Source: an uncultured Planctomycetota bacterium (GTDB lineage: Bacteria; Planctomycetota; PLA2; JAEUHO01). From it: a DNA stretch of 64,000 nt. The notes beneath the pieces were generated by a model. It was not told the DNA's origin and did no database searches. It saw only the letters and a program-made list of their open reading frames with translations. The stretch is from the NCBI GenBank assembly GCA_963752285.1, contig CAVVXN010000005.1, positions 1,600,001 to 1,664,000 on the forward strand. The letters run 5' to 3'. Below are positions 18,034-56,761 of this stretch, one piece after another (within the stretch, counting starts at the first letter, position 1; every line of letters begins with the position of its first letter). The position numbers were made by a program, and so were the translations under genes.

Positions 18034-18194
18034 GGGAGCTTCGGCTGGGGGCGAGCCCTCCTCCTCGTCGTTGGGCCCGCGTCGAAGTGTAGGGATCCCG
18101 AGACTCCCCCGCAACGTCCCCGCGGCGGGGATCGAAGGGGGGGATTCTGGCGAAATGGACGGTTTGGTACCCTGCCGCACCGCGGGGGGAGGCC

Positions 18195-29358: not shown

Positions 29359-29787
29359 CGGGGACCGGCCGGCGGCCCGGAGCCCGTGAAGGAATGGGCC
29401 GAGGGCCCGAGGCCGAGCGAGAGGGCGCGAGGAGGAGGCGACCCCTCCGTGGGTCGCTGACGACGAGCGACGCCGCATCGCGGCGCCGCAGACGGCCGAA
29501 GCCCCGGACTCGATTCCCGCCCAGGCTCTCAGCCCGCCCCGGCGTCGTGGCCCTCGCGCCGGTCGCCCGGCGACCGCTTGGGCGGCGGCGCGGTCCGCCT
29601 GCCGCGACCCGACCCCGCGAGGTGGCGGAGCCACAGCGCCAGGACGACGAACGCGAGGATCAGGAGCGGGACGAACACGGCGCCCAGTTTCGCGCGGGGG
29701 CCAGGGCGAGGCCCGGCGGGGCGCGGCCCGGCGCCGTCGCGGCGGGTAGAGTCGCGGGCCGAGGACCACGCCACGGGGGTTCGGACC

Positions 29788-32700
29788 ATGGCCGCGGAGG
29801 CGACGAGGGAACCGCAGGAGCCGGCGGAGACCGCGGCGGGGTCCGCACCGCGCGCGCCCGAGGCGGGCGGGACCGTCCGCCTCGACGTCGAGTACGACCC
29901 CTGCGTCAACTACGCCCTCCAACAGAACGCGGTCCCGGTCGTCCGGGGCGTGTGGATCGAGAACCTCTCCGACACGCCGATCGAGGACGTGGAGCTCACG
30001 ATCCGGGCCGAACCGGACCTCGCGTCGCCGGTCGTACGGCGGATCGACCGGATCCCCGGCCATCAGGGCCATCGACTCGCGAGCGTGGACCTCCCCCTCG
30101 GGCCGGCGCGGCTCGTGAACCAGATGGAGCGCGAGGCGGGCGAACTCGTGGTCGAGGTGCGGGCGAAGGGCGAGGTCGTCGCGACGACGCGCCGTCCCCT
30201 CGAGGTCCTCGCGTACGGGGAGTGGGCCGGGACGCGCTCGCTCCCCGAGATCCTCGCGGCCTTCGTGCTCCCGAACCATCCCGAGGTGGCGCGGATCCTC
30301 CTCCTCGCCCGGGAGCACCTGGGACGGGCCACGGGCAGCCCCGCGCTCGACGGGTACCAGTCGCACGACCCCGCGCGCGCCCGCGCGATCCTCGCCGCGA
30401 TCTACGCCGCCGTGTCCGGCCTCGAGATCACGTACGTGGCGCCGCCCGCGAGCTTCGAGCGCGAGGGGCAGAAGGTCCGCACGCCCGACCAGGTCGTCGA
30501 GGGCGGCCTCGGGACGTGTCTGGACCTCGCCCTCCTCGTCGCGGCCGCCCTGGAGCAGGCCGGGCTCTCGCCCCTCGTGGTCCTCTTCGAGGGCCACGCC
30601 CTCCCCGCCGTCTGGCTCGCGGACGACGCGTTCGTGGAGCCGATCGTGGACGACCCCACGCGGATCTCGAAGCGCGTCGCGCTGGGCGTGATCGAGGTCG
30701 TGGAGGCGACGGGCCTCGCGAACCGCCCCCCCGTGCCCTTCGAGGAGGCCGTGGCCCTCGCGCGGCGGCGCCTCGGATCGCCCGGGTCGTTCGCGTACGC
30801 GGTGGACGTCCGCGCGGCGAGGCGCCACAAGATCCGGCCGCTTCCCGTCCGGCTCGCCGACCCGACGTACGAGGCCGCGCCGGAGCTCCGTCCCGTCGTC
30901 CCCGCGCCGGACGCCCGGACGGGCGACGCGCGGTCCACCGCCCCCCCGGCGATCCCGTCGGCGACCGGGACCTCGCCCGGCGAAGGGGTGGAGGCGAACG
31001 CCGCGCCCGGGGGAGCCGCGGCGGAGGCCCTGCCGGTGGCGCCCCTCGTCGGCGCGGCGCGCGTCGAGCGCTGGAAGCGGAAGCTGCTCGACCTGACGCT
31101 TCGGAACCGGCTCCTGAACCACCGCGAGACGAAGACGGTCGTCCCCCTGCTCTGCCCGGACGTCGCGCGCTTCGAGGACCTGCTCTCGGCCGGGGAGACG
31201 TTCACGGTCCACCCGAGGACGCGCGAGCTCGACGGGCAAGATCCGCGCGACCCGGCGCTCTTCGCGAACCGGTCCGGCGAGGACCTCGTCCACTCGTTCC
31301 TCCTCGAGCAGATGGACCAGCGGATCCTCCGCGCGCCGCTCGACGACAAGGACCTCGACCGCCGCCTCGTCGAGATCTCGCGGACCGCGCGCACGAACCT
31401 CGAGGAGGGCGGCGCGAACACGCTCTACCTCGCGATCGGGTTCCTCCGGTGGTTCGAGACCCCGACGAGCACGACGGAGCGGCGCGCTCCGATCCTGCTC
31501 CTCCCGCTGGAGATCTCCCGGTCTTCGATGCTCGAACGGTTCCAATTTCGTCTCGCCGACGACGACCCGCGCATCAACGTAACGCTCCTCCAGAAGCTGA
31601 AGGTCGACTACGGCTTGGAGTCGGAGGGCTTCGACGAGCTCGAGACGGACGACTCGGGTCTCGACGTGCGGAGCATCCTCCAGCGCGTGCGCGCGCTCGT
31701 CCTGGCGCTCGACCGGTGGGACGTCGTCGAGGAGGTCGCGCTCGGGCACTTCTCGTTCACGAAGTACCTGATGTGGCTCGACCTCGAGAAGCGGAGCCAC
31801 GAGCTCGAGGAGAACGCGGTCGTCCGCCACCTGATCGAGTCGCCCACCGACCCGTGGCCGGTCGCGACCGATCTCCCGCGTCCCGAGGAGATCGACGAGC
31901 GCTGGAGCCCCGGATCGACGTTCTGCCCGCTCGACGCCGACAGCTCGCAGCTCTGCGCGGTCCACGCGGCCGCCGACGGCGCCACGTTCGTCCTCTGGGG
32001 ACCGCCGGGGACCGGCAAGTCCCAGACCATCACGAACGTGATCGCGCACGCCGTCGCGACGGGACGCCGCGTCCTCTTCGTATCGGAGAAGATGGCCGCG
32101 CTGAACGTCGTGAAGAAGCGCCTCGAACAGGTGGGGCTCGGGCCCTTCTGCCTCGAGCTCCACTCGAACAAGGCGCAGAAGTCGAAGGTGCTCGCCGAGA
32201 TCCAGGAGGCCCTCCACCTCACAGCGCCGGCGCCGGACGACGGCTGGGACCGGAAGGCGGAGCGGCTCCAGGGCCTCGCGAAGGACCTCGACCGCTACGC
32301 GGAGGTGCTCCACCGCCGCCGTCCGGCAGGGCTGAGCGCGTACCAGGCGATCGCCAGGCTCGTGGGCCTCGGGGACGCGCCCCTCGTCGCCCTCGACCTC
32401 GGCGACGACCCCGAGACGTTCGACGCGAAGCGCCTGGAGCAGCTCCGGGATCAGGTCCAGGCCTTTCGAACGGCGCTCGTCGAGGTGGCGCCGCCCGCCG
32501 AGCATCCCTGGCGCGGCGCGACGCTCGACGCCTGGGCGCCCGCGCTCACCGCGGACGCCGTGGCGCGGTTCCGCGAGGTGGCGCGTCGCGCGAGCGACCT
32601 CGACGCGGCGCTCGGGGCCCTCGCAACGCCCCTCGCCGTCGAGGGGAAGGCGCTCTCCCGCGCCGCGCTCCTGGCGACCGCCGACGTCGCGCGCCTCCTC

Positions 32701-35700
32701 CTCGACGCGCCGCCGGTCACGCGCGCGATCCTCGAGGCGTCCGACGCCGACGCGCTTCGCGCCGACGTGGACGCCTGGGCCGCGGCGGGGCGCGAGGAGC
32801 AGGCACTTTCCGCGGCGCTCCTCGAACGTTTCTCCCTGGGCGTGCTCGAGCTGGACCTCGACCGGCTTCGCGCACGGCTCGACCTCGCGCGGCGGTCGGG
32901 CTGGCCGGTCTCCTGGTTCCGGGCGCGGGCGCCGCGGCGCGCCCTCCGCGCGGTCGCGAAGGACCGTCTCGGCCGGACGGACGCGCTGTTGTCGGACGTG
33001 GACCGCGCGCTCCGCGTCCGGTCCCTCCGCCGGCTCCTCGACGGCGCCGCGGCGCGGGGGTCGGCGTGGTTCGGGAGTCAGTGGCAAGGCGCCGACACGT
33101 CGTGGGACGCGCTCGTTTCGGCGCGAGACTTCGCGCTCGCGCTCCAGAGGGCGACGCTCAGCGCGGCCGACGGCGACGTGCGCCGCCTCGCGTCGGTCCG
33201 GGAGCGCGCGGCGGCGCTCGCGACGGAGGGACAGGACCTCCTCTCGTCGGACGGCCCCCTCCGCGCCGCCCTTGAGGCCGCGGTCGGGGCGCACGACGCG
33301 CTCGCGGGGGCGATGGAGGCCGCGAAGGCGCTCCTCGTCCTCGACGAGGACGCGGCGTGGGGCGGGTCCGCCGAGTCGGGCGCGCTCGCGCGGATCGTGG
33401 CTCGCGCGGGCGCGGCCGCCGGGCGGCCCGAGGCGCTCCGCCCGTGGTGCACCTGGCGCCGTGTCGGCAACGAGGCCCAGAGGAGCGGTCTCGCTCCGCT
33501 CCTGGCGGCGGTCGAGGAGGGTGGGGTCCGGCCGGCCGCGGTCGAGCGCGCGTTCGAGCGCTCCTTCACCGAGTGGTGGATCGGCCGGGTCTTCCAGGCG
33601 GAGCCCCTGCTCCGGGCGTTCGACGGCCGCCAGCAGCAGGACCTCGTCCGCCGCTTCGGCGACCTGGACGTCGGCGTGACCTCGGAGAGCGGCGACGTGA
33701 TCCGGGCGCGCGTGGGCGCGCGGCTCCCGCGCGGGCAGCGCGAGATCTCGCCGAGCAGCACGTCGGAGATGGGCATCGTGCGGCGCGAGCTGATGAAGCA
33801 GCGCCGGCACATGCCGATCCGCCGCCTGCTCGAACGCGCGCCGAACGTCGTGTGCCGCCTCAAGCCCTGCCTGCTGATGAGCCCGCTCTCGGTCGCGCAG
33901 TACCTCTCGACCGACTTCCCGCGGTTCGACCTCGTCGTGTTCGACGAGGCCTCGCAGATCCCGACGCACGACGCGATCGGAGCGATCGCGCGCGGCGAGG
34001 CGCTGGTCGTGGTCGGCGACCCCAAGCAGCTCCCCCCCACCGCGTTCTTCGAGCGGACGGACGACGAGGAGGTGGACGAGGACGACGTCGAGGACCTCGA
34101 GAGCATCCTCGACGAGCTCATGGGCGCGCGGCTCCCGAGCCTGCGCCTCGGCTGGCACTACCGGAGCCGCCACGAGAGCCTGATCGCCTTCAGCAACCAC
34201 CAGTACTACGAGAACCGCCTCCTCACGTTCCCCTCCGCGCTCGCCACGGCGCCCGACCTCGGCGTCTCGCTGGTGAACGTCGAGGGCGTCTACGACCGCG
34301 GCGGGTCCCGCGCGAACCTCGCCGAGGCGAAGGCGGTGGTCGCGGAGATCGTGGCGCGTCTCACGGACCCGGAGCGCGCGCGCTACACGATCGGCGTCGT
34401 CACCTTCAGTCTCGCGCAGCAGACGCTCGTCGAAGACCTCCTCGACCAGGCGCGGCGCGAGAACCCGGCCCTCGAGCCGTATTTCACCGGAGGCGTCGAG
34501 GAGCCCGTGTTCGTGAAGAACCTGGAGAACGTCCAGGGCGACGAGCGCGACGTGATCCTCTTCTCGATCTGCTACGGCGCGGACGCGTCGGGCCGGGTCG
34601 CGCTCAACTTCGGGCCGCTGAACCGCGACGGCGGCGAGCGGCGATTGAACGTCGCGATCACCCGAGCGCGCCGCGAGGTGAAGGTCTACGCCTCGATCCG
34701 CGCCGACCAGATCGACCTCGCGCGGACCCGCGCGGTCGGGATGCGACACCTGAAGGAGTTCCTCGACTACGCCGCGCGCGGACCGGCGGCGCTCGGCCAG
34801 GCGCTCGTCGTGGCGGGCGACGCGGAGGCGGAGTCGCCCCTCGAGGAGGACGTGAAGCGCGCGATCGAGGCCGCCGGCTTCGAGGTCGTGTCGCAGGTCG
34901 GGTGCTCGGGCTACCGGATCGACCTCGGCGTGAAGGACCCGGACGCGCCGGGGCGCTTCCTCCTCGGGGTCGAGTGCGACGGCGCCATGTACCACAGCGC
35001 GAAGACCGCGCGCGACCGCGACCGGCTCCGGGCGAGCGTGCTGCGCGGTCTCGGCTGGGTGCTCCACCGCGTGTGGTCCACGGACTGGTGGCAGGACCCG
35101 AAGCGCGAGACGAAGCGCGTCCTCGACCGTCTCCAGGAGCTCCGCCGGGCGCCCCGAGGGCCCCCCCCGCCGCCCGTGCCCCCGCGCCCGCGCCGCCGCC
35201 GCCCCCGCCCACGCCCACGGCGCGGGCCGGGGACGCTGGCGAAGACGTCCTGCCCGACGGGGCCCGGGCCGACGCGCCCGCGGCGTCCGGTCCTCGCGGG
35301 GGCTCCGCGGACGCGGCCGGGCCCCTCGTTCCCGGCGCGACGAGGTACGAGGCGCACGAGCCGAACGTGTCCTCGAGCGATCCCGAGGTCTTCTACCTGC
35401 CCCGCACGACGTCTCACGTTCGACGCGTGCTCGAGCAGGTGTTGCGGCAGGAGGCGCCCATCTCCCTCTCGCTCCTCGGGCGGCGCGTGGCGACGGCCTG
35501 GGGGCTCAAGCGCCTCACGAACCGAGCGAAGGAGCGCGTCGAGGAGGTGCTCGTCCGCGTGCCCCACCGCACGACCGCCGCATCCTGGGAGACGTTCGTG
35601 TGGCGCGACGACCAGGACCCGTCGGGCTATCGGGGCGTTCGCGTGCCGGGGCCGAAGGAGGACGACCGTCGGGAGCCCGAAGAGATCTCGCCCCAGGAGA

Positions 35701-35945
35701 TCGCGAACGCCGCGGCGTTGATCCTCCGCGACCAGATCAGCATGCCGCCCGACGACCTGTCGCGCGAGACCGCGCGGATGCTCGGATTCCAGCGCATGGG
35801 CTCGGCGGTGAAGCCCGTGATGGAGGCGGGGCTCTCGACGCTCGTTCGGGACGGCCGCGCGGTCCAGGACGGCGAAGCCCTCGTCGCGAACGACGACCCC
35901 CCGGCGACCGACGGCCCCGGACGGGATCTTGCGCCGCCGACGTAG
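29788..35945 (+). CDS. DUF4011 - SF1 helicase - Vsr/MTES-like nuclease - DUF3320 protein (Hhe-like defence protein), frameshifted near 35160
   Basis: WKRKLLDLTLRNRLLN (DUF4011), GPPGTGKSQTI, FDEASQ, GDPKQLPP, HYRS, ENVQGDERD, RRLNVAITRAR, IDLGV..GVECDG..YHS..RDRDRLR; the C-terminal EAPI...EISPQEI region is in another frame after C8 at 35161-35168. Confidence 0.88.
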
Positions 35946-43981: not shown

Positions 43982-44043
43982 CGGAGGCCTCCGCATCCTG
44001 GGAACGTCGGCGGGCGCCCGCTGGCGCGCCCGGGACTCGCGGC

Positions 44044-45336
44044 TCAGCGCGCGCGCGACGCCGAGAGCGCGCGGTGCGCGATGTCGGTGCGGAACATCGC
44101 CCCCTCGAAGTCGATGCGCTGGACGCCCTCGTAGGCCCGGTCGCGCGCCTCGCGGAGGCCCGGGCCCCGGCCGGTGACGCAGAGCACCCGCCCGCCGGCG
44201 GTCACGACCCGGTCGCCCGCGCGGCGCGTCCCGGCGTGGAACACCTCGACCCCCTCCAGGCCCGCGGCCTCCTCGAGGCCCCGGATCGGCTTCCCGGCCT
44301 GGTACGCCCCCGGGTACCCCTGCGAGGCGATCACCACCCCCACGCACGGTTCCGGGTCCACGTCGAGGCCCTCGATCGACGCGAGCCTCCCCTCGGCCGC
44401 CGCGTAGAGGACCTCGAACAGGTCCGTCTCGAGGCGCGGCAGCACCACCTGGGCCTCGGGGTCGCCGAAGCGCACGTTGAACTCGAGCACGCGCGGTCCG
44501 CCCTTCGTGACCATGAGGCCCGCGTAGAGCACGCCGGCGAAGGGAGCGCCCTCCATCTTCATCCCGTGAATCGTGGGCACGAGGACCGTACGGATTACGC
44601 GGTCCATCAGGTCGCCCTCGACGACGGGCGCCGGGCTGTACGCGCCCATGCCGCCGGTGTTCGGCCCCGCATCCCCGTCGAGCGCGCGCTTGTGGTCCTG
44701 CGAGGAGGGCAGGACGAGGATCGTGTCGCCGTCGGTGATGGCGTGGATCGAGGCTTCCTCCCCGCGGAGGTACTCCTCCACCACCACCCGCGCGCCCGCG
44801 TCGCCGAACCGGCGCGCCGACATCGACTCGTCGAGCGCCGCGAGCGCCTGGTGCAGATCCTCGCAGATCGCGACGCCTTTCCCGGCCGCGAGCCCGTCGG
44901 CTTTCACCACGAGCGGGAAGACCTCGCTCTGGCGCACGTACGCGCGCGCCTCGTCGGCGTCGGTGAACGAACGCCACGCCGCGGTGGGCACGTTGTTCCT
45001 CACCATCATCTGCTTCGCGAACGCCTTGCTGCCCTCGAGGCGCGCGGCCGCGCGGGTCGGCCCGAAGATGACGAGGCCGTCGTCGCGGAACAGGTCCACG
45101 ATGCCCTGGACGAGGGGCGCCTCGGGGCCCACGACCGTCAGGTCCACCTTCTCCTCGCGGGCCCAGCGCCGGAGGCCCTCGACGTCGCTCGTGAGCAGGT
45201 CCGCGCGACATCGCGCCACCGCCTCCATGCCGCCGTTCCCCGGCGCGGCGAGGACCTCGTCGACGCGGGGGCTCTTCGCGAGCGTCGCGGCAAGCGCGTG
45301 CTCGCGGCCCCCGCCCCCCACGACCAGCACCTTCAT
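44044..45336 (-). CDS. purD: Phosphoribosylamine-glycine ligase
   Basis: GGGGREHAL, GPEAPL, LEGSKAFAK, KADGLAAGKGV, QDHKR, NTGGMGAYSP, EFNVRFGDPE. Confidence 0.98.
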   Translation of the reverse strand: MKVLVVGGGGREHALAATLAKSPRVDEVLAAPGNGGMEAVARCRADLLTSDVEGLRRWAREEKVDLTVVGPEAPLVQGIVDLFRDDGLVIFGPTRAAARLEGSKAFAKQMMVRNNVPTAAWRSFTDADEARAYVRQSEVFPLVVKADGLAAGKGVAICEDLHQALAALDESMSARRFGDAGARVVVEEYLRGEEASIHAITDGDTILVLPSSQDHKRALDGDAGPNTGGMGAYSPAPVVEGDLMDRVIRTVLVPTIHGMKMEGAPFAGVLYAGLMVTKGGPRVLEFNVRFGDPEAQVVLPRLETDLFEVLYAAAEGRLASIEGLDVDPEPCVGVVIASQGYPGAYQAGKPIRGLEEAAGLEGVEVFHAGTRRAGDRVVTAGGRVLCVTGRGPGLREARDRAYEGVQRIDFEGAMFRTDIAHRALSASRAR

Positions 45337-45673
45337 GACGGCTCCTCGGGGCGATGTCCGGCGGCGCTCTCGTACCACGCGGGGGCCCGGCCGGCGAACG
45401 GATCGGGCGGGGCCCCTCCACCGTGCGCTCGACGATCCGTGACCCGTACGTGACATCCGAGGCCCGCGAGAGGCCCCCGAGAGCGCGCTCCGGGCGTCTG
45501 CGGGGCCGTTCCAGGGTCCGTCCCCCCCCGGTGTCACCCGATACGTAGCGATGGGCCCTCGCTCCTTGGAGGGGAGTGCCGTCCGCGGTACCCTCGCCCG
45601 GGGTCAGGCCCCAAGGAGGCATGTCTAGACCCAGCGCCCCCGGCGAATGGGTCGATTGGGAGGTTCTCGATCC

Positions 45674-45880
45674 ATGAGGAAGTTCGTCGTCCTGCTGGCG
45701 CTGGTCGTCGCGGTCGGCACGATGGTTGGCTGCTCCAGCCCGTGCAACCCCTGCCAGCCCTGTCAGCCCTGTGTCGCCGCTCCCGTCTACCAGAGCCCGT
45801 GCTGCCCCGCTCCGAGCGGTGCGGTCGATGGCGCCTGGGGGATGGCCGCGCCGATGGCGCCCGCCGGTGGGGGCTACTAG
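45674..45880 (+). CDS. Small Cys/Pro-rich lipoprotein 1 (68 aa)
   Basis: GGAGG RBS; MRKFVVLLALVVAVGTMVG-CSSPCNPCQPCQPC...CC...GGGY; strong terminator downstream. Confidence 0.8.
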   Translation: MRKFVVLLALVVAVGTMVGCSSPCNPCQPCQPCVAAPVYQSPCCPAPSGAVDGAWGMAAPMAPAGGGY

Positions 45881-45945
45881 GACTCGTACCGCTACGAGCA
45901 CGTAGGGTCGTCCCGCGCGACGAGTGCGGGAGGACCCGGACATCC

Positions 45946-45986
45946 GAGACGCACGGCGATCGAGATCGCCGTGCGTTTCTCTTTTT
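45946..45986 (+). terminator. Rho-independent terminator
   Basis: Stem GACGCACGGCGAT-cgag-ATCGCCGTGCGTT followed by a T-rich tail. Confidence 0.8.
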
Positions 45987-46174
45987 CGGCCGCATCTCGT
46001 GTTCGTGGGCGGGGATCACGGCGCCACACGGGCCCGGCCCGACGTAGCGCCGCGCGCGGGGCACGCGCCGCCACCCGCCGGCCCGCGCCGGTCGTGGACC
46101 GCGCGCTTGGCAGCCGCCGCGCGACCTCCTACGATCGCGCGGCGACGCGCGGTTCGCGTCGGGAGGACGAAGGC

Positions 46175-46441
46175 ATGCGGCCGCGAACGATCCTCGGCGT
46201 GGTGCTCGCGCTCCTCTTCGTCGCCGGCGCCCTGGGCCTCTCCGGCTGCTGCGTCGAGCCGGCGGACTGTCTCTGTCCGGGCGACCCGTGCCAGGAGGGT
46301 GCGGCGCCGTGCGACCCGTGTCGGAACGGCGGCGAGAAGCGGTTCTGGACGCCGATCCACCGCGTGTCCTGTTGCTGGTGGCAGCCCGTACCGTGCCCGT
46401 GCGCGGACCCCGCCCCACTCCCCTCGGCCTGCGCGCCGTAG
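46175..46441 (+). CDS. Small Cys-rich lipoprotein 2 (88 aa, 12 Cys; OmcA-like pattern)
   Basis: GGAGG RBS; signal ending LSG-CC, then VEPADCLCPGDPCQ..PCDPC..CCWW..CPC..C. Confidence 0.75.
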   Translation: MRPRTILGVVLALLFVAGALGLSGCCVEPADCLCPGDPCQEGAAPCDPCRNGGEKRFWTPIHRVSCCWWQPVPCPCADPAPLPSACAP

Positions 46442-46599
46442 CGGCACCGAATTCGCCGGGGACACGCGTCGTGACCCACGGGTGACCCGGGAGGGCATCC
46501 TGGGGGCGTACCGGGACTCGTGCTCGCGGCGTCCCCGGGGACCGTGGCCGTCGTCCCGTTCAACCGGGGCCGGGGCCCTCGACGTCGGGACGGAGGACC

Positions 46600-46761
46600 A
46601 TGAAGAAGCTGACCCTCTGGCTGCTTGCGGCCGCTCTCCTGGGGCTCGGGGCCGCCTGCAGCTCCCCCTGCAACACCCCCAATCCCTGCAACACACCCAA
46701 CCCCTGCAACACGCCGAACCCCTGCAACACCCCGAATCCGTGCAACCCCTGCGGGCGCTAG
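46600..46761 (+). CDS. Small Cys-rich lipoprotein 3 (53 aa; not in ORF track)
   Basis: GGAGGACC-ATG; MKKLTLWLLAAALLGLGAA-CSSP(CNTPNP)4CNPCGR; repeat units differ only at synonymous positions. Confidence 0.85.
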   Translation: MKKLTLWLLAAALLGLGAACSSPCNTPNPCNTPNPCNTPNPCNTPNPCNPCGR

Positions 46762-46950
46762 GCCCCCGCGGAGCGCGTAGCCTCGTCTGCTTGTGGTCAG
46801 GAGGAGGATCGGCGGTCCGGGATCCAGGTCTTGGAGAACGGTCCCGCTCGGCCTATTCTCTTGGCTCGGAGGTTGGGCGCCGCCTTCAGGCGTCGGTCTG
46901 CAGACGTCACGGCCGGGCCCATGTACGTTCATCCTAGGAGGTACATCCCC

Positions 46951-47238
46951 ATGCTTCGCAAGCTCGTGATCGTGGCCGCGCTGGTCGGCTGCGTCGGCTT
47001 GGTGGCCTGCTCGTCGCCGTGCAGTCCGTGTAACCAGCCGAACCCCTGCAACAACCCGTGCAGCAGTCCCTGCAACCAGCCGAACCCCTGCAACACCTGC
47101 AGCCCCTGCAACCAGCCGAACCCGTGCAACCAGCCGAACCCCTGCGCGTCGCCGTGCGCCACCCCGTGCGCGCCGGCTCCGTGCGCCCCGCCGCCCTGCG
47201 CGCCGCCCCCGGCGCCCTGCGCGGCTCCCGGCTACTAG
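46951..47238 (+). CDS. Small Cys/Pro-rich lipoprotein 4 (95 aa)
   Basis: [33 protein letters not shown], four CNQPNP units, CAPPP tail, ends PGY; 16 Cys in the mature part. Confidence 0.85.
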
Positions 47239-47263
47239 CTCGCGGTCGGCACAGAGGCTGAGT

Positions 47264-47293
47264 GGGAACCGCCCGGACCCGGGCGGTTCTCTT
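47264..47293 (+). terminator. Putative terminator hairpin
   Basis: GAACCGCCCG-gacc-CGGGCGGTTC followed by TCTT. Confidence 0.6.
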
Positions 47294-47457
47294 CCCCAGG
47301 GAAGGTCGTGGTCGAGGGCACCACGGCCTTCCCTTCGCTTTGCGTGGGCGCGCGGACGTCGATCGCGTCACGCGCGTTCGTCCGCGGCGCCGGGCCTCCG
47401 ACGCGCGAGGGCCCGCGACGCCGCAGCGTCCGTGAACGGGCGCGCGCGGGCGGAAGT

Positions 47458-47532
47458 TGGTCGGGGAGATGGGATTCGAACCCACGACTGGCAGCTCCCA
47501 AAGCTGCCCCTCTACCACTGAGGTACTCCCCG
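47458..47532 (-). tRNA. tRNA-Pro(TGG)
   Basis: CGGGGAG acceptor, anticodon arm GCAGC-TTTGGGA-GCTGC, GGTTCGAATCC, 3' ACCA. Confidence 0.95.
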
Positions 47533-47645
47533 AGCCGGTCGTCTCGGTTGGCGCCCAAAGGCGCGCCGCGGCGAAGGGTACCACCTACCGGTAGACGCCC
47601 CAAGCGAGCCGGTACGACGTACGGGCCCGCGCTTCGCCGCGCGCG

Positions 47646-49406
47646 CTACCCGCCGGTGGTCGGGCGGTCGGGCGTGCTGCCCGGCTTCGGTCCCGCCGCG
47701 GGACGAGGCGGCGGCTTGGGAGGCGTGGGCGCCGGTCCGTGTCCGCCCTTCCCGTTGGGCTTCTTCGCCGTCGCCTCTTCGAGGACCTCTACGTCCACGT
47801 CGAAAGTGTAGAGCCGCTGGCGTTCGAGCAGAAGCTCCCACGGCGTGCCGCCGTAGCGGGACCGGAGCCGCATGCGCCTCAGCCACAGCTCGGCGAGCGC
47901 GAGGTTTCGCTCGCGGTCGTCGAGGTCCCGCGCCTCGGGCCGCCGCTCGAACCCCTCGGCGATCAGGCGGGGAACGAGCCGCGCTCGCCGGTAGGTGACG
48001 TGGAGCGGCTTGATGCGGCGGAGCGCGGCGACGCGCTCGAGCCAGTGGAAGCGGACCTGCTGGAGCAGGGTGCCGAGCAGCTGGAAGTCGGCCTCGACGC
48101 GTTCGGAGAGCGGGTCCTGACGATCGGAGGGCGTCCGGGCGCGGCCGTCCACCTCGGCCCACCACTGGAGGGCCTGGTTCACGCGCTCGAGCCGGGCGGT
48201 GGCGTGGGCGATCGCCCGGCGCACGTCGTCCATCTCCTCGTACCAGACGGTCAGCGGCTGGAGCGAGCGCACGGGTCGCTGCGGGCGGAGACCGAGGCCG
48301 CCGCCCACCATCTCGAGCGAGCCGAGCGTCTGGAGCACGGGGCACGCCTCGTCCGCCAGATGCTCCCAGATCCGCACGATCACGCGCGCGCGCGCGTCCT
48401 TGTCGAGGTCCTTCAGGACGCGCGCGCGGGGGCGCAGGTCGGGCGCGAAGCGCGCAAGTCGCCCCGGGTCGTACACGGGCGACGCCTGCCTCTTCGCAGC
48501 CGAGCCGGTCGCGGAGAAGTCGGTGACGAAGTAGCGTCCGCCGGTGCTGAACGCGAGCGACGCGGGCGCCCAGTAGCCGAATCCGGACGGCACCGGGTAG
48601 CGCGGCGGGCGCTGCCACAGGAACTCGAGCTGCGCGAGGTCGAGCTCCCAACCGTACGGGACCAGGCCGAGCGCGACGTCGCCGTCGTAGAAGAGCGAGT
48701 CGTGATCGCCCGAGCCCGGCTCCGGTTCGAAGCGCTCGACGAGTCCGAGGGCGGGCACGTTCCTCGGCACGAACGTCTCCTGCCACGCCCGCTCGAACCC
48801 CGCCTCGGGCGCGATCGCGTAGAACGCGACGCCCCCGTCGAGGAGCGCCTCCCGTGTCGCCTCGACGTCGTCCTCGGCGTCGCCCCCGTCTGCCGTCACG
48901 AGGCAGATCGCGAGGGGACCGCGGGTGCGCCGGAGCTCGGCCGCGGCGTCGCGCGTGGCGCGGAGCAGGTTCTTCGTGCCGGGCACGGGGATCGCCGCCA
49001 GGGCCTCGAGGGCGACCCGGGCCCGAGCGGGGTCGGGATCCGGGCGGAGCCGGTCCGCGCCGCAGCCGAGCACCCCGATGGCGAGCCCCGGAGGGCCCTC
49101 CGCCGCGACGCTCTCGATCGCGGCCGCGAGCTGCTTCAGGCGCGGAACGAGCGAGGGCGTCGGGTCGATCACGAGCATCAGCGCGCCGGCGCCGGCCTCG
49201 GGCCGCGCCTCGGCGCGGAGCGCGAGGTCCCGCGCCACGAACCGGACCGCGTCCCGGAAGTCGCGCCCGCGCTCGTACACCTCGGCCGGTGTGCGTGCCT
49301 CCGTGGCGACGCCGCCCTCGGCGCCCGGAGGTGGGGTGAGCCCCGCGAGGAGGAGCGCCGCCGCGAGGGCGAAGGACGGGCGGAGGAGGAGCCGGGGCCG
49401 CGGCAC
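47646..49406 (-). CDS. Secreted vWA-like protein (planctomycete-type)
   Basis: Signal peptide; MIDAS-like VIDPTPS, LVTADGGD, VPSGFGYWAPASLAFSTGGRYF, RYGGTPWE, Pro-rich tail. Confidence 0.7.
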   Translation of the reverse strand: MPRPRLLLRPSFALAAALLLAGLTPPPGAEGGVATEARTPAEVYERGRDFRDAVRFVARDLALRAEARPEAGAGALMLVIDPTPSLVPRLKQLAAAIESVAAEGPPGLAIGVLGCGADRLRPDPDPARARVALEALAAIPVPGTKNLLRATRDAAAELRRTRGPLAICLVTADGGDAEDDVEATREALLDGGVAFYAIAPEAGFERAWQETFVPRNVPALGLVERFEPEPGSGDHDSLFYDGDVALGLVPYGWELDLAQLEFLWQRPPRYPVPSGFGYWAPASLAFSTGGRYFVTDFSATGSAAKRQASPVYDPGRLARFAPDLRPRARVLKDLDKDARARVIVRIWEHLADEACPVLQTLGSLEMVGGGLGLRPQRPVRSLQPLTVWYEEMDDVRRAIAHATARLERVNQALQWWAEVDGRARTPSDRQDPLSERVEADFQLLGTLLQQVRFHWLERVAALRRIKPLHVTYRRARLVPRLIAEGFERRPEARDLDDRERNLALAELWLRRMRLRSRYGGTPWELLLERQRLYTFDVDVEVLEEATAKKPNGKGGHGPAPTPPKPPPRPAAGPKPGSTPDRPTTGG

Positions 49407-49568
49407 GGTCCCTCACTCTACCCGCGGGGCGCCGAGCCGCGGGGGCCGCGAGCCCGGCCCTCGGCGCTCGATCCGTCTCCGAGGCGCGACCCGGACGGGC
49501 GGCCCGGGCCCGATACGATCTCGGGTCGAGCGGCGCGTTCCTCTCGATGCGCGCCCGGAAGGAGACCG

Positions 49569-50633
49569 ATGCGGCGCCCCGTCTTCCTCTCGTCCCTGGC
49601 CCTCGCCGCCCTCGCCACCGGTCTTTGGGGCTGCGGCTCCAAGGACGACGCGCCCCTGCCGGAGGAGCTCTGGTGCTATCCGGTGTCGGCCATCATCATC
49701 AAGCGGAACGACCAACAGCCGTTCGAGGCGATCGTGCGTGCGAACAAGCTCTTCCTCGAGGCGAAGAGCGGGCGGTCGTTCGCGGACCTCGCCCGCCGGA
49801 ACAGCGACGACCCCGAGTCCGCTGCGGTCGGCGGGTTCCTGGGCTTCATGCGCCCCGCCGACGACGAAATCGTTGCCGGCGCGATCCAGGCGCTGGCGCC
49901 CGGCGTGGTCGGAGGCCCCGTTCGGACGCAACGTGCGATCGAGATCATGCTGCGCCACACCTTCGACGAGGGGCGGGAGATCGAGGCGCGGTCCACCGTC
50001 GCTGCGTACGGATTCCTCGTCCCCTGGAAGGGATCGGCGAAGGAAGCGGAGCGGACGAAGGAGGAGGCGAGACAGCTCGCCGAGTCGTTGCTCGCCGACG
50101 TGACGTCGGGCAAGAAGACCGTCGAGGACGCCGCACGCTCGGTGCTCGGCGACCGCGACGTGAAGCCGGCGGCGTACATCGGGCTGATCCGCGACGCGGA
50201 GCCGATGAAGGGCTTCTACGAGGCGCTGCGGGCCGTCCCCGTGGGCGGCTACATCCCAGTCGCCGACTACCCCGGCGGGTACTCCGTGGTGAAGCGTGGC
50301 CCGCTCGTGCGCTGCATCCTCCGGGAGATCCTGATCCAGCACGTCGAGAGCCCCTCGCGCAAGCTCAGCATCCGACGCACGAAGGCGGAGGCGAAGGAGC
50401 TCGCGGAGAAGGTCCTGTCGGAGTGCCACCGGGACGGTTCGAACTGGCCCGAGATGGTGCGTCGCTACCACGACGATCCCGGCCTCGCAGCGATCGACGG
50501 CTCGGTCGGCGTCGTGTCGAACGACCTCCCGCCGCCGATGGTGGACGTGCTGGTGGACACGCCGCCCGGCGAGGTCGCCTCGCGTCTGGCCGAGACGCCC
50601 GAGGGCTACCACATCCTCTACAAGGTGAAGTGA
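49569..50633 (+). CDS. Parvulin/PpiC-type peptidyl-prolyl isomerase lipoprotein (multi-domain)
   Basis: Lipobox LWGC; FADLARRNSDDP..GGFLG, RTKAEAKELAE, ETPEGYHIL. Confidence 0.85.
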   Translation: MRRPVFLSSLALAALATGLWGCGSKDDAPLPEELWCYPVSAIIIKRNDQQPFEAIVRANKLFLEAKSGRSFADLARRNSDDPESAAVGGFLGFMRPADDEIVAGAIQALAPGVVGGPVRTQRAIEIMLRHTFDEGREIEARSTVAAYGFLVPWKGSAKEAERTKEEARQLAESLLADVTSGKKTVEDAARSVLGDRDVKPAAYIGLIRDAEPMKGFYEALRAVPVGGYIPVADYPGGYSVVKRGPLVRCILREILIQHVESPSRKLSIRRTKAEAKELAEKVLSECHRDGSNWPEMVRRYHDDPGLAAIDGSVGVVSNDLPPPMVDVLVDTPPGEVASRLAETPEGYHILYKVK

Positions 50634-50700
50634 GCGGCGCGGCGCGGCGCGGCGCGGCGCGGCCAGAGCCTTGCTCCCGCTATACTGCGCCCGAGTCCAC

Positions 50701-50777
50701 GCCCCGGTAGCTCAGCCGGATAGAGCATCGGATTTCTAATCCGACGGTCGGGGGTTCGAGTCCCTCCCGGGGCGCCA
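50701..50777 (+). tRNA. tRNA-Arg(TCT)
   Basis: GCCCCGG acceptor, anticodon arm TCGGA-TTTCTAA-TCCGA, GGTTCGAGTCC, 3' GCCA; TATACT -10-like hexamer upstream. Confidence 0.97.
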
Positions 50778-53791: not shown

Positions 53792-55834
53792 TCAGACGGT
53801 GCGGACCAGGCGGGCGAGCGCGTGCGCGACCTCCGCGGCGTTCGCGGGCCGGTCGCCTGGGTCCGTCGCGAGGAGCGACGCCACGAACCGGTCCACGGCC
53901 GGCGCGACGTCGGGTCGGAACTCGGCGAGCCGGGGCGCGGCCTCGTGGCGCAGGCGATCGAGGAAGGCGCGCGGATCGGGTGAACCGTCGGCCAGGGGCC
54001 GGAAGCCGACCATCCACTCGAAGACGATCACGCCGAGCGCGTAGAGGTCGGTCCGCCCGTCCACCGGTTCGCCGGCCGCCTGCTCGGGCGCGAGGTACGC
54101 GAGCGTCCCGGCGAGGTCCGCCTCGCGCGGATCCACGTTCGCGACGCCCATGTCCACGATCACGGGCGAGCCGTCGTCGCGGAGGATCACGTTCTCGGGC
54201 TTGAGGTCGCGGTGGACCACGCCGGCCCCGTGGAGGGCCGCGAGCGAGAACGCGAGGTTCAGAGCCACGCGTCCGACCCGCGCGAACGGGGGGTCGGGCT
54301 CGGCCTCCATCGCGACGCGGAGCGGACGGCCGGGCACGTACTCTCGGACGACGTAGAAGCCGCCGTCGTCCTCCTCGCCCACCGCGAAGACGCGCGCGAC
54401 GCCCGGGTGGCGGACGCGCGACGCCGCGAGGAGCTCGGTCCGCGCGGCGTTCGCAAGGCGCTCGCGCCGCGCGCCGTCGTAGACGCGCTCGAGGTGGAGG
54501 ACCTTCAGGGCCACCTCACGCCCACGTACGGGGTCCCAGGCCTGGTACACCTCGCCCATCTGGCCGCGGCCGAGCAGCGCGAGCGTGACGTACGCGCCGT
54601 CCGCGGGCCGGCCCCCCGCGCTCCGAGGACGCGGGGGCTCCTCGATCGCCCCCTCGACGAGCGCGAGGGACGCCATCGCCTCGTTCAAGAGCGGCAGGAA
54701 GCGCCGGTAGCCGGACGCCCGTACGCGCCGCGACGCCTCGAGGAGCGTGGTCCGCGCGCCGGCCTCGTCGCCGCGATCGAGGAGGGCGCGCGCGAGGCGC
54801 ACCCGCGCCGGGATCTCGAGGTCGAGCACGTCCGCGCGCTCGAGCGCCACGACGCCCTCCCGGAGCACCCCGAGGCCGCTCGCGTCGCCCTCCGCGAGGA
54901 GCAGGTCGCCGCGGACGGCCTGGAGCATGCCGGTTCGGTACGACGAGGCCCCGGTCGGGGCGGTCGCCTCCGCCACCTCGAGCACCTGGCGGGCCTCGCG
55001 GTTCCGCCCGTGCCGCAGGTGGAGCGCCGCGAGGTCCAGCCGCGCGAAGAACGCGATCTCCGCGTGGCCGTGGCGCTGGGCGAGGACGATGGCGCGCGCG
55101 AAGGCCTCGGCGGCCTTCGCGTCGTCTTCGAGACCCGCCCACGCCCGGCCCAGGTCCTCGTGCATGCGCGCCTGCGCGCGGAGGTCGCCCTGCTCGCGGG
55201 CGAGCGCGAGGTCGCGTTCGAAGCAGCGCACCGCGTCGCCGAAGCGCCCCGCCCGGAGCGCGACCCGGCCGAGGTTGCCGATGGTCACCGCCAGGCCCCG
55301 CCGGTCGCCGAGGACGGCCTTGTCCACCAGCGAGACGGCGAAGTAGAAGGTCGCGGCCTCGAGGCGGCCACGCGTCGCGTGCACGAGCCCGATCGAGTCG
55401 TCCACGTGGGCGCGCGCGAGGACGTTGCCCGTCTGCTCGTAGAGCCGCGCCGCCTCGAGGAGCACGGCGAGCGCGCGGCCGGTGCGCCGCAGGCGGTCGT
55501 AGGCCATGCCCATCACGTGGAGGGCGCGCGCGCGAAGCGCCGGGGCCTCGCAGCTCCGCTTCGCCACGGCCCGCGCGGCCTCGAGGACCCGCTTCAGGTC
55601 GTGGCCCTGACGCAGGTCCACGTACGCGAGCTCCAGCCGCGCCGCGTCGCCGACGACCGGGAGGGCCGCGTCGAGGTCCACGCGTGCCTCCTGGTCACGG
55701 CCGATCGCGAGGCGTGCGAGCGCGCGCGCGTAGCGCTGCTCGGCGGTCAGGGCCTCGACGTCGGCACCCTCGCGCGCGGGCGAGCGCGGCGCGGGCGGCG
55801 GAGGGACGTCGGGGGCGGGCGATCCTTCGGACAC
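53792..55834 (-). CDS. TPR-repeat protein fused to a C-terminal Ser/Thr kinase
   Basis: TPR-like helices (GLAVTIGNLGRV); LGRGQMGEVY, VALK, HRDLKPEN, DMG, GTLAYLAPE, DLYALG. Confidence 0.9.
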   Translation of the reverse strand: MSEGSPAPDVPPPPAPRSPAREGADVEALTAEQRYARALARLAIGRDQEARVDLDAALPVVGDAARLELAYVDLRQGHDLKRVLEAARAVAKRSCEAPALRARALHVMGMAYDRLRRTGRALAVLLEAARLYEQTGNVLARAHVDDSIGLVHATRGRLEAATFYFAVSLVDKAVLGDRRGLAVTIGNLGRVALRAGRFGDAVRCFERDLALAREQGDLRAQARMHEDLGRAWAGLEDDAKAAEAFARAIVLAQRHGHAEIAFFARLDLAALHLRHGRNREARQVLEVAEATAPTGASSYRTGMLQAVRGDLLLAEGDASGLGVLREGVVALERADVLDLEIPARVRLARALLDRGDEAGARTTLLEASRRVRASGYRRFLPLLNEAMASLALVEGAIEEPPRPRSAGGRPADGAYVTLALLGRGQMGEVYQAWDPVRGREVALKVLHLERVYDGARRERLANAARTELLAASRVRHPGVARVFAVGEEDDGGFYVVREYVPGRPLRVAMEAEPDPPFARVGRVALNLAFSLAALHGAGVVHRDLKPENVILRDDGSPVIVDMGVANVDPREADLAGTLAYLAPEQAAGEPVDGRTDLYALGVIVFEWMVGFRPLADGSPDPRAFLDRLRHEAAPRLAEFRPDVAPAVDRFVASLLATDPGDRPANAAEVAHALARLVRTV

Positions 55835-55870
55835 GGTGTCCCCAGGGTAGCGGGGGTAGGCTCCCGCTCC

Positions 55871-56761
55871 ATGGACCGCCGCGTTCGCGCACGCTTCGAG
55901 ATCCTCCTCGCCGCGACGCTCTTCTCGACCGGCGGGGCGGCGATCAAGGCGATCTCGCTCGGCGGCTGGCAGGTGGCGGCGGGGCGCTCCCTGTTCGGCG
56001 CGCTCGCGCTCTTCGTCCTCGTGCCCGGCGCCCGCCGCGTGTCGGTCCCGAGGACGTGGCTCGTCGCCGCGCCCTACGCGGCGACCCTGATCCTGTACGT
56101 CCAGTCGAACAAGCTCACGACCGCGGCGAACGCGATCTTCCTCCAGTCCACGGCCCCCCTCTACCTCCTCGCGATCGGCCCGCTCCTCCTCGGGGAGCGG
56201 ATCCGGCGCGCGGACCTGGTCTACATGGCGGCGCTCGCGACCGGCCTGGCCCTCTTCCTCGCGGGGCTCGAGCCGCCGCAAAGGACGGCGACGGACCCGG
56301 CGCTCGGAAACGTGCTCGCCGCGGTATCGGGACTCACCTGGGCGTTGACCGTTGCCGGGCTGAGGAGCCTCGCCCGGCCCGGCGCAGGGGGCGGCGAGGC
56401 GCGGGAGGCCCCGGCGGCGGCCGCCGCGGCCCAGGGGAACCTCCTCGTCGTCCTCGTCGCGCTGCCGTTCGCGCTGCCCCTCGCGGGCGCGAGCTTCTCG
56501 GACCTCCTCGGTGTCGCCTACCTGGGCACGTTCCAGATCGGGCTCGCGTACGTCTTCCTGGTCCGGGGCGTCCGCGACGTGTCGGCGCTCGAGGGGGGCC
56601 TCCTCCTGCTCCTCGAGCCGGTCCTGAACACCCTGGCGAGCTGGCTGGTCAACGGCGAGGTCCCGGGTCTGCTCGCGCGGGCCGGGGCGGGGGTGATCCT
56701 GGTCGCCACGGCGGCGCACGCGGTCCACACCCGGCGCCGCGCGCGCCCCGGCCCCGCCTGA
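55871..56761 (+). CDS. EamA/DMT family transporter
   Basis: TTAANAIFLQSTAP, LLGER, LLEPVLN; about 10 TM helices. Confidence 0.9.
   Translation: MDRRVRARFEILLAATLFSTGGAAIKAISLGGWQVAAGRSLFGALALFVLVPGARRVSVPRTWLVAAPYAATLILYVQSNKLTTAANAIFLQSTAPLYLLAIGPLLLGERIRRADLVYMAALATGLALFLAGLEPPQRTATDPALGNVLAAVSGLTWALTVAGLRSLARPGAGGGEAREAPAAAAAAQGNLLVVLVALPFALPLAGASFSDLLGVAYLGTFQIGLAYVFLVRGVRDVSALEGGLLLLLEPVLNTLASWLVNGEVPGLLARAGAGVILVATAAHAVHTRRRARPGPA

Follow-up and report, generated by a model that had tools for sequence, protein, structure and literature searches.

Is a short reading frame built of near-identical 18-nt repeats a gene and, if so, what might its product do? The question is raised by a locus, gene C below, within a 64,000-nt stretch of a contig from an uncultured Planctomycetota bacterium. 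This whole stretch, the window, was analysed; its GC content is approximately 73%, so open reading frames are cheap in it. An earlier note had proposed that the locus encodes a hidden 53-aa lipoprotein made of perfect (CNTPNP)4 repeats, whose units differ only at third codon positions as a result of selection on the peptide rather than slippage of the DNA.

The reading frame was found exactly where it had been placed (46600..46761, + strand; Table 1), and every detail of the description proved correct. It begins with ATG and encodes MKKLTLWLLAAALLGLGAAC-SSP-(CNTPNP)x4-CNPCGR, and with 53 aa it lies under the 60-aa default of the ORF listing, as had been said. The four units all begin with TGC AAC. 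In units 1 to 4 the third codon is then ACC, ACA, ACG and ACC, the fourth CCC, CCC, CCG and CCG, the fifth AAT, AAC, AAC and AAT, and the sixth CCC, CCC, CCC and CCG. Comparison of these codons bears out the claim about third positions, as all the differences are synonymous changes there: the array requires at least five inter-unit mutations, 100% of them at codon position 3, and each 18-site unit offers 4.0 synonymous sites. Tandem Repeats Finder reported a period-18 array of 4.6 copies (46665..46746). A DNA pattern for the hexapeptide plus the following Cys, TGYAAYNNNCCNAAYCCNTGY, had eight matches in the window, where 100 shuffles gave an expectation of 0.00; all eight are confined to gene C and a paralogue 350 bp downstream.

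Counted from Cys20, the predicted mature chain has 34 residues. It contains 7 Cys (including the one that would be lipid-modified), the number originally given, together with 10 Pro and 9 Asn, so that Cys alone accounts for 21% of the chain and Cys, Pro and Asn together for 76%. Aromatic residues are absent and the sole charged residue is the C-terminal Arg.

Table 1. Positions in the window of the A-D cluster, its putative signals and other features referred to in the text.
Feature	Position	Strand	Remarks
CGTGAC-6 nt-CGTGACA repeat	45340..45500		twice within this purD-side intergenic region
Gene A	45674..45880	+	68 aa; predicted signal peptide ending MVGC, then CSSPCNPCQPCQPC, conserved VAAPVYQSPCCPAPSG block, C-terminal GY
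Intrinsic-terminator hairpin 3' of gene A	45946..45979	+	15-pair stem, then T run
Sigma-70-like promoter match upstream of gene B	46107..46135	+	TTGGCA, 17-nt spacer, TACGAT; consensus match alone
Gene B	46175..46441	+	88 aa, non-repetitive; predicted signal peptide ending LSGC; conserved CCWW
Shine-Dalgarno-like GGAGG of gene C	46592..46596	+	3 nt before ATG; spacing short
Gene C	46600..46761	+	53 aa
Gene C, predicted signal peptide	46600..46656	+	
Gene C, lipobox Cys codon	46657..46659	+	
Gene C, 18-nt unit array	46669..46740	+	four units, CNTPNP each, starting at 46669, 46687, 46705 and 46723; variable columns exclusively at codon position 3
Gene C, CNPCGR tail	46741..46758	+	
Gene C, stop codon	46759..46761	+	
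AGGAGG Shine-Dalgarno of gene D	46936..46941	+	9 nt before ATG; upstream block conserved in L004 and L016
Gene D	46951..47238	+	95-aa paralogue; predicted signal peptide ending LVAC; interrupted CNQPNP units
Terminator-like hairpin 3' of gene D	47314..47331	+	weak; 6 pairs; consensus match alone
tRNA-Pro(UGG)	47458..47532	-	convergent with the cluster; conserved marker of the cluster end
Stretch between tRNA-Pro and tRNA-Arg	47533..50700		variable islet
586-aa ORF	47649..49406	-	within the inter-tRNA stretch
tRNA-Arg(UCU)	50701..50777		
Very large Ser/Thr protein kinase	18093..23276	+	one of two
2086-aa protein	29461..35718	+	helicase and endonuclease-like domains
Very large Ser/Thr protein kinase	53795..56728	-	one of two

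Several features of the locus would also fit tandem non-coding DNA, an antisense frame or one of the longer overlapping ORFs in place of gene C. Many frames stay open at 73% GC, and four ORFs (337, 267, 226 and 61 aa) run across the site. GC3 is also high (0.87) in the antisense frame whose third positions coincide with those of gene C, gene callers apparently report neither C nor D, and the GGAGG of gene C is just 3 nt from its ATG. The base composition of the frames tells against these alternatives. In gene C the GC at the three codon positions is 0.48/0.63/0.91, with GC3 near that of purD (0.94) and fur (0.93), whereas GC stays at approximately 0.7 across all three positions in the long overlapping ORFs, which matched no Pfam family.

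The unit peptides were then compared among the arrays of three genomes, the window and its relatives L004 and L016 (see below). The arrays were located by protein pattern and each contiguous run of units was kept whole, with no unit dropped. Only the proposed + frame yields identical unit peptides, with one distinct peptide among 4, 6 and 5 units, respectively; the antisense frame sharing third positions yields two to four distinct unit peptides and contains in-frame stops in L016. Together the three arrays hold at least 13 inter-unit mutations, all of them synonymous, for which the chance under neutrality is approximately 3e-9 (0.22 synonymous sites). In 12/12 pairwise comparisons of genes A-D the dN/dS ratio was below 1 (0.16-0.57 overall and 0.20-0.28 for gene C), although the repeats cannot be aligned unambiguously and dS approaches saturation in some of the pairs. 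A predicted signal peptide and lipobox, present in 15/15 cluster genes of four genomes and in 23/34 of the profile matches described below, likewise count against a non-coding origin.

Frameshifts or loss of the reading frame in homologous loci had been named beforehand as the observations that would speak against a gene. The homologous loci were inspected and the frame is kept; in three other genomes the start, signal peptide and lipobox are kept with it. Thus the reading frame of gene C is conserved and under purifying selection, and gene C is very probably a real, conserved gene, as had been supposed.

The orthologous loci were obtained by scanning 185,579 species-representative genomes (one per species) with the DNA pattern TGYAAYNNNCCNAAYCCNTGYAAYNNNCC. 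This gave 17 loci, three of which are true family members (L004, L016 and L007), all in metagenome-assembled genomes of Planctomycetota with a GC content of 0.69-0.70. The other 14 were rejected as chance: they are single matches with no signal peptide or ORF context and no tandem units, mostly at lower GC. In L004 and L016 the entire neighbourhood is intact: a deaminase gene, a gene for a Fur-family regulator and purD are followed by the divergently transcribed A-D; PurD is 72% identical to that of the window in L004 and 67% in L016. One extra cluster paralogue is carried by L016, and L007 retains C, D and the tRNA. The tRNA-Pro(UGG) is convergent and 3' of D in 4/4 genomes (L004 7722..7796; L016 10706..10780; L007 9813..9887), and its position beside the Pro-rich gene D may be plain synteny.

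The number of units in the C array is four in the window (CNTPNP), five in L016 (CNQPNP) and six in L004 (CNQPNP), and the frame is kept throughout. Position 3 of the unit is Thr (ACN) in all units of the window and Gln (CAR) in all units of L004 and L016; the C-termini of the C orthologues are GR, G and VG. The uniform Thr or Gln, together with the differing unit number, indicates that the array has been homogenised and resized by whole-unit events. Whole-unit turnover and selection against amino-acid changes both operate on the C array. Of the proposal that selection rather than slippage shaped it, the first half therefore stands, since the changes are synonymous only, but setting selection against slippage poses a false alternative, given arrays of 4, 5 and 6 units and the Thr/Gln swap.

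On the far side of the tRNA-Pro, the stretch that extends to the tRNA-Arg(UCU) is a variable islet. Its length is 3.2 kb in the window and 2.9 kb in L007, against approximately 1.3 kb in both L004 and L016. The 586-aa ORF that it contains in the window has no Pfam or NCBIfam match.

The N-terminus of gene C consists of MKK, a positive n-region, followed by the hydrophobic LTLWLLAAALLGLGAA, in agreement with the n- and h-regions of a lipoprotein signal peptide, and this layout is common to 15/15 cluster genes in the four genomes. The lipobox is LGAAC, ending in Cys20, and in the C orthologues it is LAAC and LAGC, both canonical. The lipobox rule that was applied is of the PROSITE type, in which an invariant Cys lies at position 15-35. 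The window contains 2474 candidate starts that are followed by 40 or more codons, and 15 of these agreed with the rule. These represent nine ORFs, including A, B, C and D; the four lie in tandem at 45674-47238 and are the only ones of the nine in which Cys reaches 14-21% of the mature chain. The assignment of gene C as a lipoprotein by the earlier note is therefore upheld as a prediction, and lipidation and an envelope location of the product would be expected from it. Under the E. coli rule, Ser at +2 leads to the outer membrane, and the Ser at +2 of gene C would by this rule direct the predicted lipoprotein there. LolCDE is reported in a planctomycete.

Gene C is, as far as can be judged from sequence, the third of four small Cys/Pro-rich genes on the same strand, A to D, all predicted to encode lipoproteins. 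Gene A agrees with the lipobox rule and has a GGAGG 10 nt upstream of its ATG and a GC3 of 0.88; with its orthologues in L004 and L016 it gives dN/dS values of 0.16-0.28. The predicted mature chain of gene B has 64 aa, 12 of which are Cys; here GGAGG lies 8 nt upstream, GC3 is 0.91 and dN/dS with the L004 and L016 orthologues is 0.27-0.57. In gene D a CxxC-rich stretch is accompanied by a tail, CAPxPC, and the last two residues are GY, with a GC3 of 0.94 and dN/dS of 0.20-0.50. GC3 across the cluster is thus 0.88-0.94, and a core resembling a Shine-Dalgarno sequence is found upstream of 14/15 cluster genes in the four genomes. In the A-type relatives P0041 and P0042 a CNQPN unit precedes the A-specific VYQSPCC block, so that A, C and D look like one superfamily.

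The stem sequence of the terminator 3' of gene A is conserved in L004. One promoter-like match was found against 0.0 expected from shuffles, and this candidate promoter upstream of gene B may be shared by B, C and D. With a terminator 3' of A, a promoter-like site 5' of B and a weak terminator 3' of D, A is probably transcribed alone and B-C-D jointly. Alignment of the intergenic regions purD-A and A-B showed conservation of the Shine-Dalgarno region and the terminator hairpin only, with no Fur box or shared operator standing out. The tRNA was the sole Rfam match in 44000..49000.

Two further observations were made in and around the cluster. L004, but not L016, shares with the window the conserved CGTGAC-6 nt-CGTGACA repeat of the purD-side intergenic region, a possible operator of purD. 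A shared Gly-Tyr C-terminus occurs in A and D of the window, in the A orthologues of L004 and L016, in the D orthologues of L016 and L007, and in the metagenomic proteins P0006 and P0041. Gene D of L004 does not end in Gly-Tyr, and another metagenomic subgroup (P0002, P0005, P0009, P0025) has a GGxGWR C-terminus. These shared C-termini could be sorting or attachment signals.

A word-indexed homologue search with gene C gave 33 candidates, none at E<=10. The same kind of search with gene D gave six metagenomic proteins of 56-106 aa (P0001-P0006). A profile built from the gene D relatives (alignment A1) was then run against 1.84 billion representative proteins and gave 34 matches at E<=1e-3. The lipobox expression was matched by 24 of them, and 23 of these are proteins of 48-109 aa with C-[ND]-x-P-N-x repeats. 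The remaining 10 have no lipobox and include 'NPC' tails on SoxA/TsdA-type cytochromes c, one cytochrome P460 and one DUF5666 protein; they were treated as compositional look-alikes. No curated model of the CNxPNP-repeat family exists, and its limits were set by this analysis: proteins of approximately 50-110 aa in which tandem C-[ND]-x-P-N-x units directly follow a lipobox. Gene C falls within them.

No Pfam family was matched by A-D (C and D at E<=0.01, A and B at E<=1, B also as a longer 156-aa reading) and no NCBIfam family by B, C or D at E<=1. A PDB profile search returned only two chance-level rows (E 0.85 and 1), and the best ESM Atlas scores (0.78, 0.77 and 0.76) were all under the lead threshold. 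Literature searches on the motif strings, on hexapeptide-repeat lipoproteins and on Cys-rich repeat lipoproteins of planctomycetes gave nothing relevant among the papers listed. A-D and their relatives appear to constitute a previously undescribed family of predicted repeat lipoproteins in a narrow planctomycete lineage.

Gene A is present in the 15-billion-protein collection as P0038 (100% identical), encoded on a 2.35-Mb contig, and gene A of L004 is there as P0039, a 'hypothetical protein'. Genes C and D were not recovered from the collection by their own homologue searches, nor was gene D of L004 in the search with D. C and D thus appear to be uncalled, which is consistent with the description of gene C as hidden.

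Runs of (K/A)NPC(A/N) were seen to flank SoxA/TsdA-type cytochrome c, cytochrome P460 and DUF5666 domains, often at both ends, in the metagenomic proteins P0013, P0028, P0033, P0036, P0030 and P0032. These runs may be a distinct type of Cys-repeat tail, so far undescribed, carried by periplasmic redox proteins.

In the available parts of two reports on planctomycete wall preparations (PMC8567305, PMC12673574), Cys-rich YTV proteins and a lipoprotein top the preparations. Taken with the planctomycete relatives of the cluster, this favours the reading that A-D are stiff, lipid-anchored, disulfide cross-linkers of the planctomycete envelope, a role to which a probability of roughly 0.4 may be given. 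The product of gene C would be exported by Sec, then cleaved and lipid-modified at Cys20 to leave an anchored chain of 34 residues. The Pro-rich hexapeptides would hold this chain extended, stiff and non-globular, presenting one thiol per six residues, and through these thiols the chain would become disulfide-bonded to the paralogues and to further Cys-rich proteins of the envelope. In this way short cross-linkers would be provided by the cluster for the protein layer of planctomycetes, which resists SDS, is rich in Cys and Pro and is stabilised by disulfides, and the length of the chain would be tuned by gain or loss of whole units.

The composition of the chain, with two Pro per six residues, suggests that it would be extended and stiff. 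A polyproline-II helix has three residues per turn, and in such a helix the Cys residues would lie on one face and the two Asn on another. The mature chain of gene C has no hydrophobic or aromatic core residues, and several differing Cys/Pro-rich paralogues are clustered; both points support a structural role. AlphaFold2 gave no confident fold for gene C (18-row alignment, pLDDT 58.9, pTM 0.26) or gene D (16-row alignment, pLDDT 46.3, pTM 0.19), and hence no confident model of the putative regular Cys ladder suggested by the earlier note. In the gene C model there was no helix of four or more residues outside the signal peptide; a complex prediction with four mature C copies gave no answer (score 0.02) and counts neither for nor against.

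Some points count against an envelope role. The neighbouring genes (purD, fur, the deaminase gene and tRNAs) are uninformative on the envelope, the low-confidence models neither support nor refute an extended conformation, and so small and Cys-dense a chain, with neither His nor aromatic residues, would fit a metal-thiolate protein just as well. In Pfam, A-D also show no relation to the YTV proteins that wall preparations do contain. The number of free Cys across the cluster proteins is neither consistently even nor consistently odd, so no disulfide scheme can be deduced. A family found by the DNA pattern in 3/185,579 species cannot, moreover, explain planctomycete walls in general.

The mature chains lack Lys and Arg, D throughout and C internally. 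Planctomycete wall proteomics, in the portions of the reports available, was trypsin-based with a two-peptide minimum, and could therefore not have seen C and D. A stronger version of the cross-linker reading, though an unlikely one, is that A-D belong to a 'dark' structural proteome of tiny Cys-Asn-Pro rods disulfide-stitched into the planctomycete wall, concealed both by gene-finder misses and by mature chains without trypsin sites. If that were true, part of the old finding of a Cys/Pro-rich, disulfide-stabilised, SDS-resistant envelope would rest on such micro-lipoproteins, beside the large YTV proteins.

The main rival to disulfide cross-linking is that A-D are lipid-anchored, exported metallothionein-like proteins whose thiolates bind or buffer Cu, Zn or Cd, forming a periplasmic metal sponge or store. 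The classical definition of a metallothionein is compositional (low mass, high Cys, no aromatic residues or His), and mature gene C agrees with it, having 21% Cys and no Phe, Trp, Tyr or His. D often shows CxxC and Cx3C motifs (CNPC, CSPC, CNTC), as does the conserved CNPCG end of C. The three syntenic genomes all have a Fur-family regulator two genes from the cluster, and an ESM Atlas neighbour below the lead threshold (0.76) bears the automatic name 'Metallothionein family protein'. However, no metallothionein family was matched in Pfam or NCBIfam, and one Cys per six residues with two Pro between is a poor arrangement for chelation by a single chain. The synteny with fur is limited to close relatives (PurD 67-72% identical) and so carries little weight; no AT-rich palindrome resembling a Fur box stood out in the aligned upstream regions, and the oxidising periplasm would be expected to oxidise the thiols. 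A metal buffer is on balance doubtful.

Ranked lower is a sacrificial thiol, redox or sulfur-carrier layer, in which the Cys residues would remove oxidants or electrophiles at the membrane surface or carry sulfane sulfur there. A high density of thiols on a flexible, exposed chain would suit this function, and the looser 'NPC' tails of the weaker profile matches end periplasmic SoxA/TsdA-type cytochromes c, one cytochrome P460 and one DUF5666 protein. Those matches, however, are weak (E 1e-6 to 1e-3) and of low complexity, with a KNPCA repeat and no lipobox, which makes homology doubtful, and no sulfur or redox genes adjoin the cluster; the idea is improbable. Also ranked below the metal buffer, the reading that the locus encodes no protein in this frame is largely refuted by the unit peptides, base composition and dN/dS values given above, and can hardly be maintained.

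Three other candidates were considered and rejected. As N-glycosylation sequons, the repeats have Pro in the X position and a Thr that is not conserved. Anchoring in the manner of Lpp would need a C-terminal Lys, which the C orthologues do not conserve. A RiPP precursor was discarded in view of the Sec/lipobox leader and the lack of a maturase nearby.

The locus is a clear and readily checked example of small conserved genes that standard annotation appears to pass over in high-GC genomes. It also introduces what seems to be an undescribed micro-lipoprotein family, in which just three kinds of residue account for three quarters of the mature chain. Should the cross-linker reading be true, the family would be a candidate constituent of the still unexplained planctomycete envelope, rich in Cys and Pro and stabilised by disulfides, and it would explain why trypsin-based wall proteomics would miss such proteins. 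If instead the metal-buffer reading is true, gene C would encode a rare exported, lipid-anchored metallothionein-like protein.

Elsewhere in the window, a 2086-aa protein combines DUF4011 and AAA_11/AAA_12 helicase domains with an MTES_1575-type restriction-endonuclease-like domain. Two very large Ser/Thr protein kinases are also encoded, one with many WD40 repeats and the other with TPR, in keeping with a planctomycete-like genome.

Several known systems resemble the cluster in part. Metallothioneins, including the bacterial SmtA/BmtA and MymT, are tiny proteins with approximately 20-30% Cys, no aromatic residues and CxxC motifs; they are cytosolic and have no signal peptide. Mature gene C would be classed with them by composition but not by family sequence, and it differs from them in its predicted Sec/lipobox export signal, its richness in Pro and its regular Cx5C spacing.

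Braun's lipoprotein, Lpp, is a very small envelope lipoprotein that acts as a structural tether, an alpha-helical coiled coil joined to peptidoglycan by a C-terminal Lys. Gene C likewise encodes a very small predicted envelope lipoprotein, but one that is Pro-rich (10 Pro/34) and has no conserved C-terminal Lys. The coiled-coil heptads and C-terminal Lys that define Lpp are not found in gene C, for which AlphaFold2 gave no helix of four or more residues outside the signal peptide. Lpp is mentioned in the available part of PMC8567305. The YTV wall proteins of Planctomycetia, as described in the accessible parts of PMC8567305 and PMC12673574, are planctomycete-specific and Cys-rich, two properties common to A-D, and belong to the SDS-resistant wall fraction. 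According to the same partial texts YTV proteins carry multiple copies of their motif, whereas A-D have no YTV match in Pfam, are 53-95 aa long and are predicted to be lipid-anchored.

The high-sulfur keratin-associated proteins of hair are built of short Cys/Pro/polar repeats and form a disulfide cross-linking matrix; they are eukaryotic and intracellular, and with unrelated sequences the likeness to gene C is one of composition alone. The 9-kDa Cys-rich protein of chlamydiae, OmcA, is a small Cys-rich outer-membrane lipoprotein of the PVC superphylum that presumably cross-links, by disulfides, an envelope stiffened by protein. Models for OmcA and the YTV wall proteins are presumably in Pfam-A, and A-D matched no Pfam model. 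OmcA has no hexapeptide repeat, is not Asn/Pro-rich and shows no sequence relation to gene C detectable with Pfam or NCBIfam, but both are small, Cys-rich lipoproteins, predicted in the case of gene C, from the PVC superphylum.
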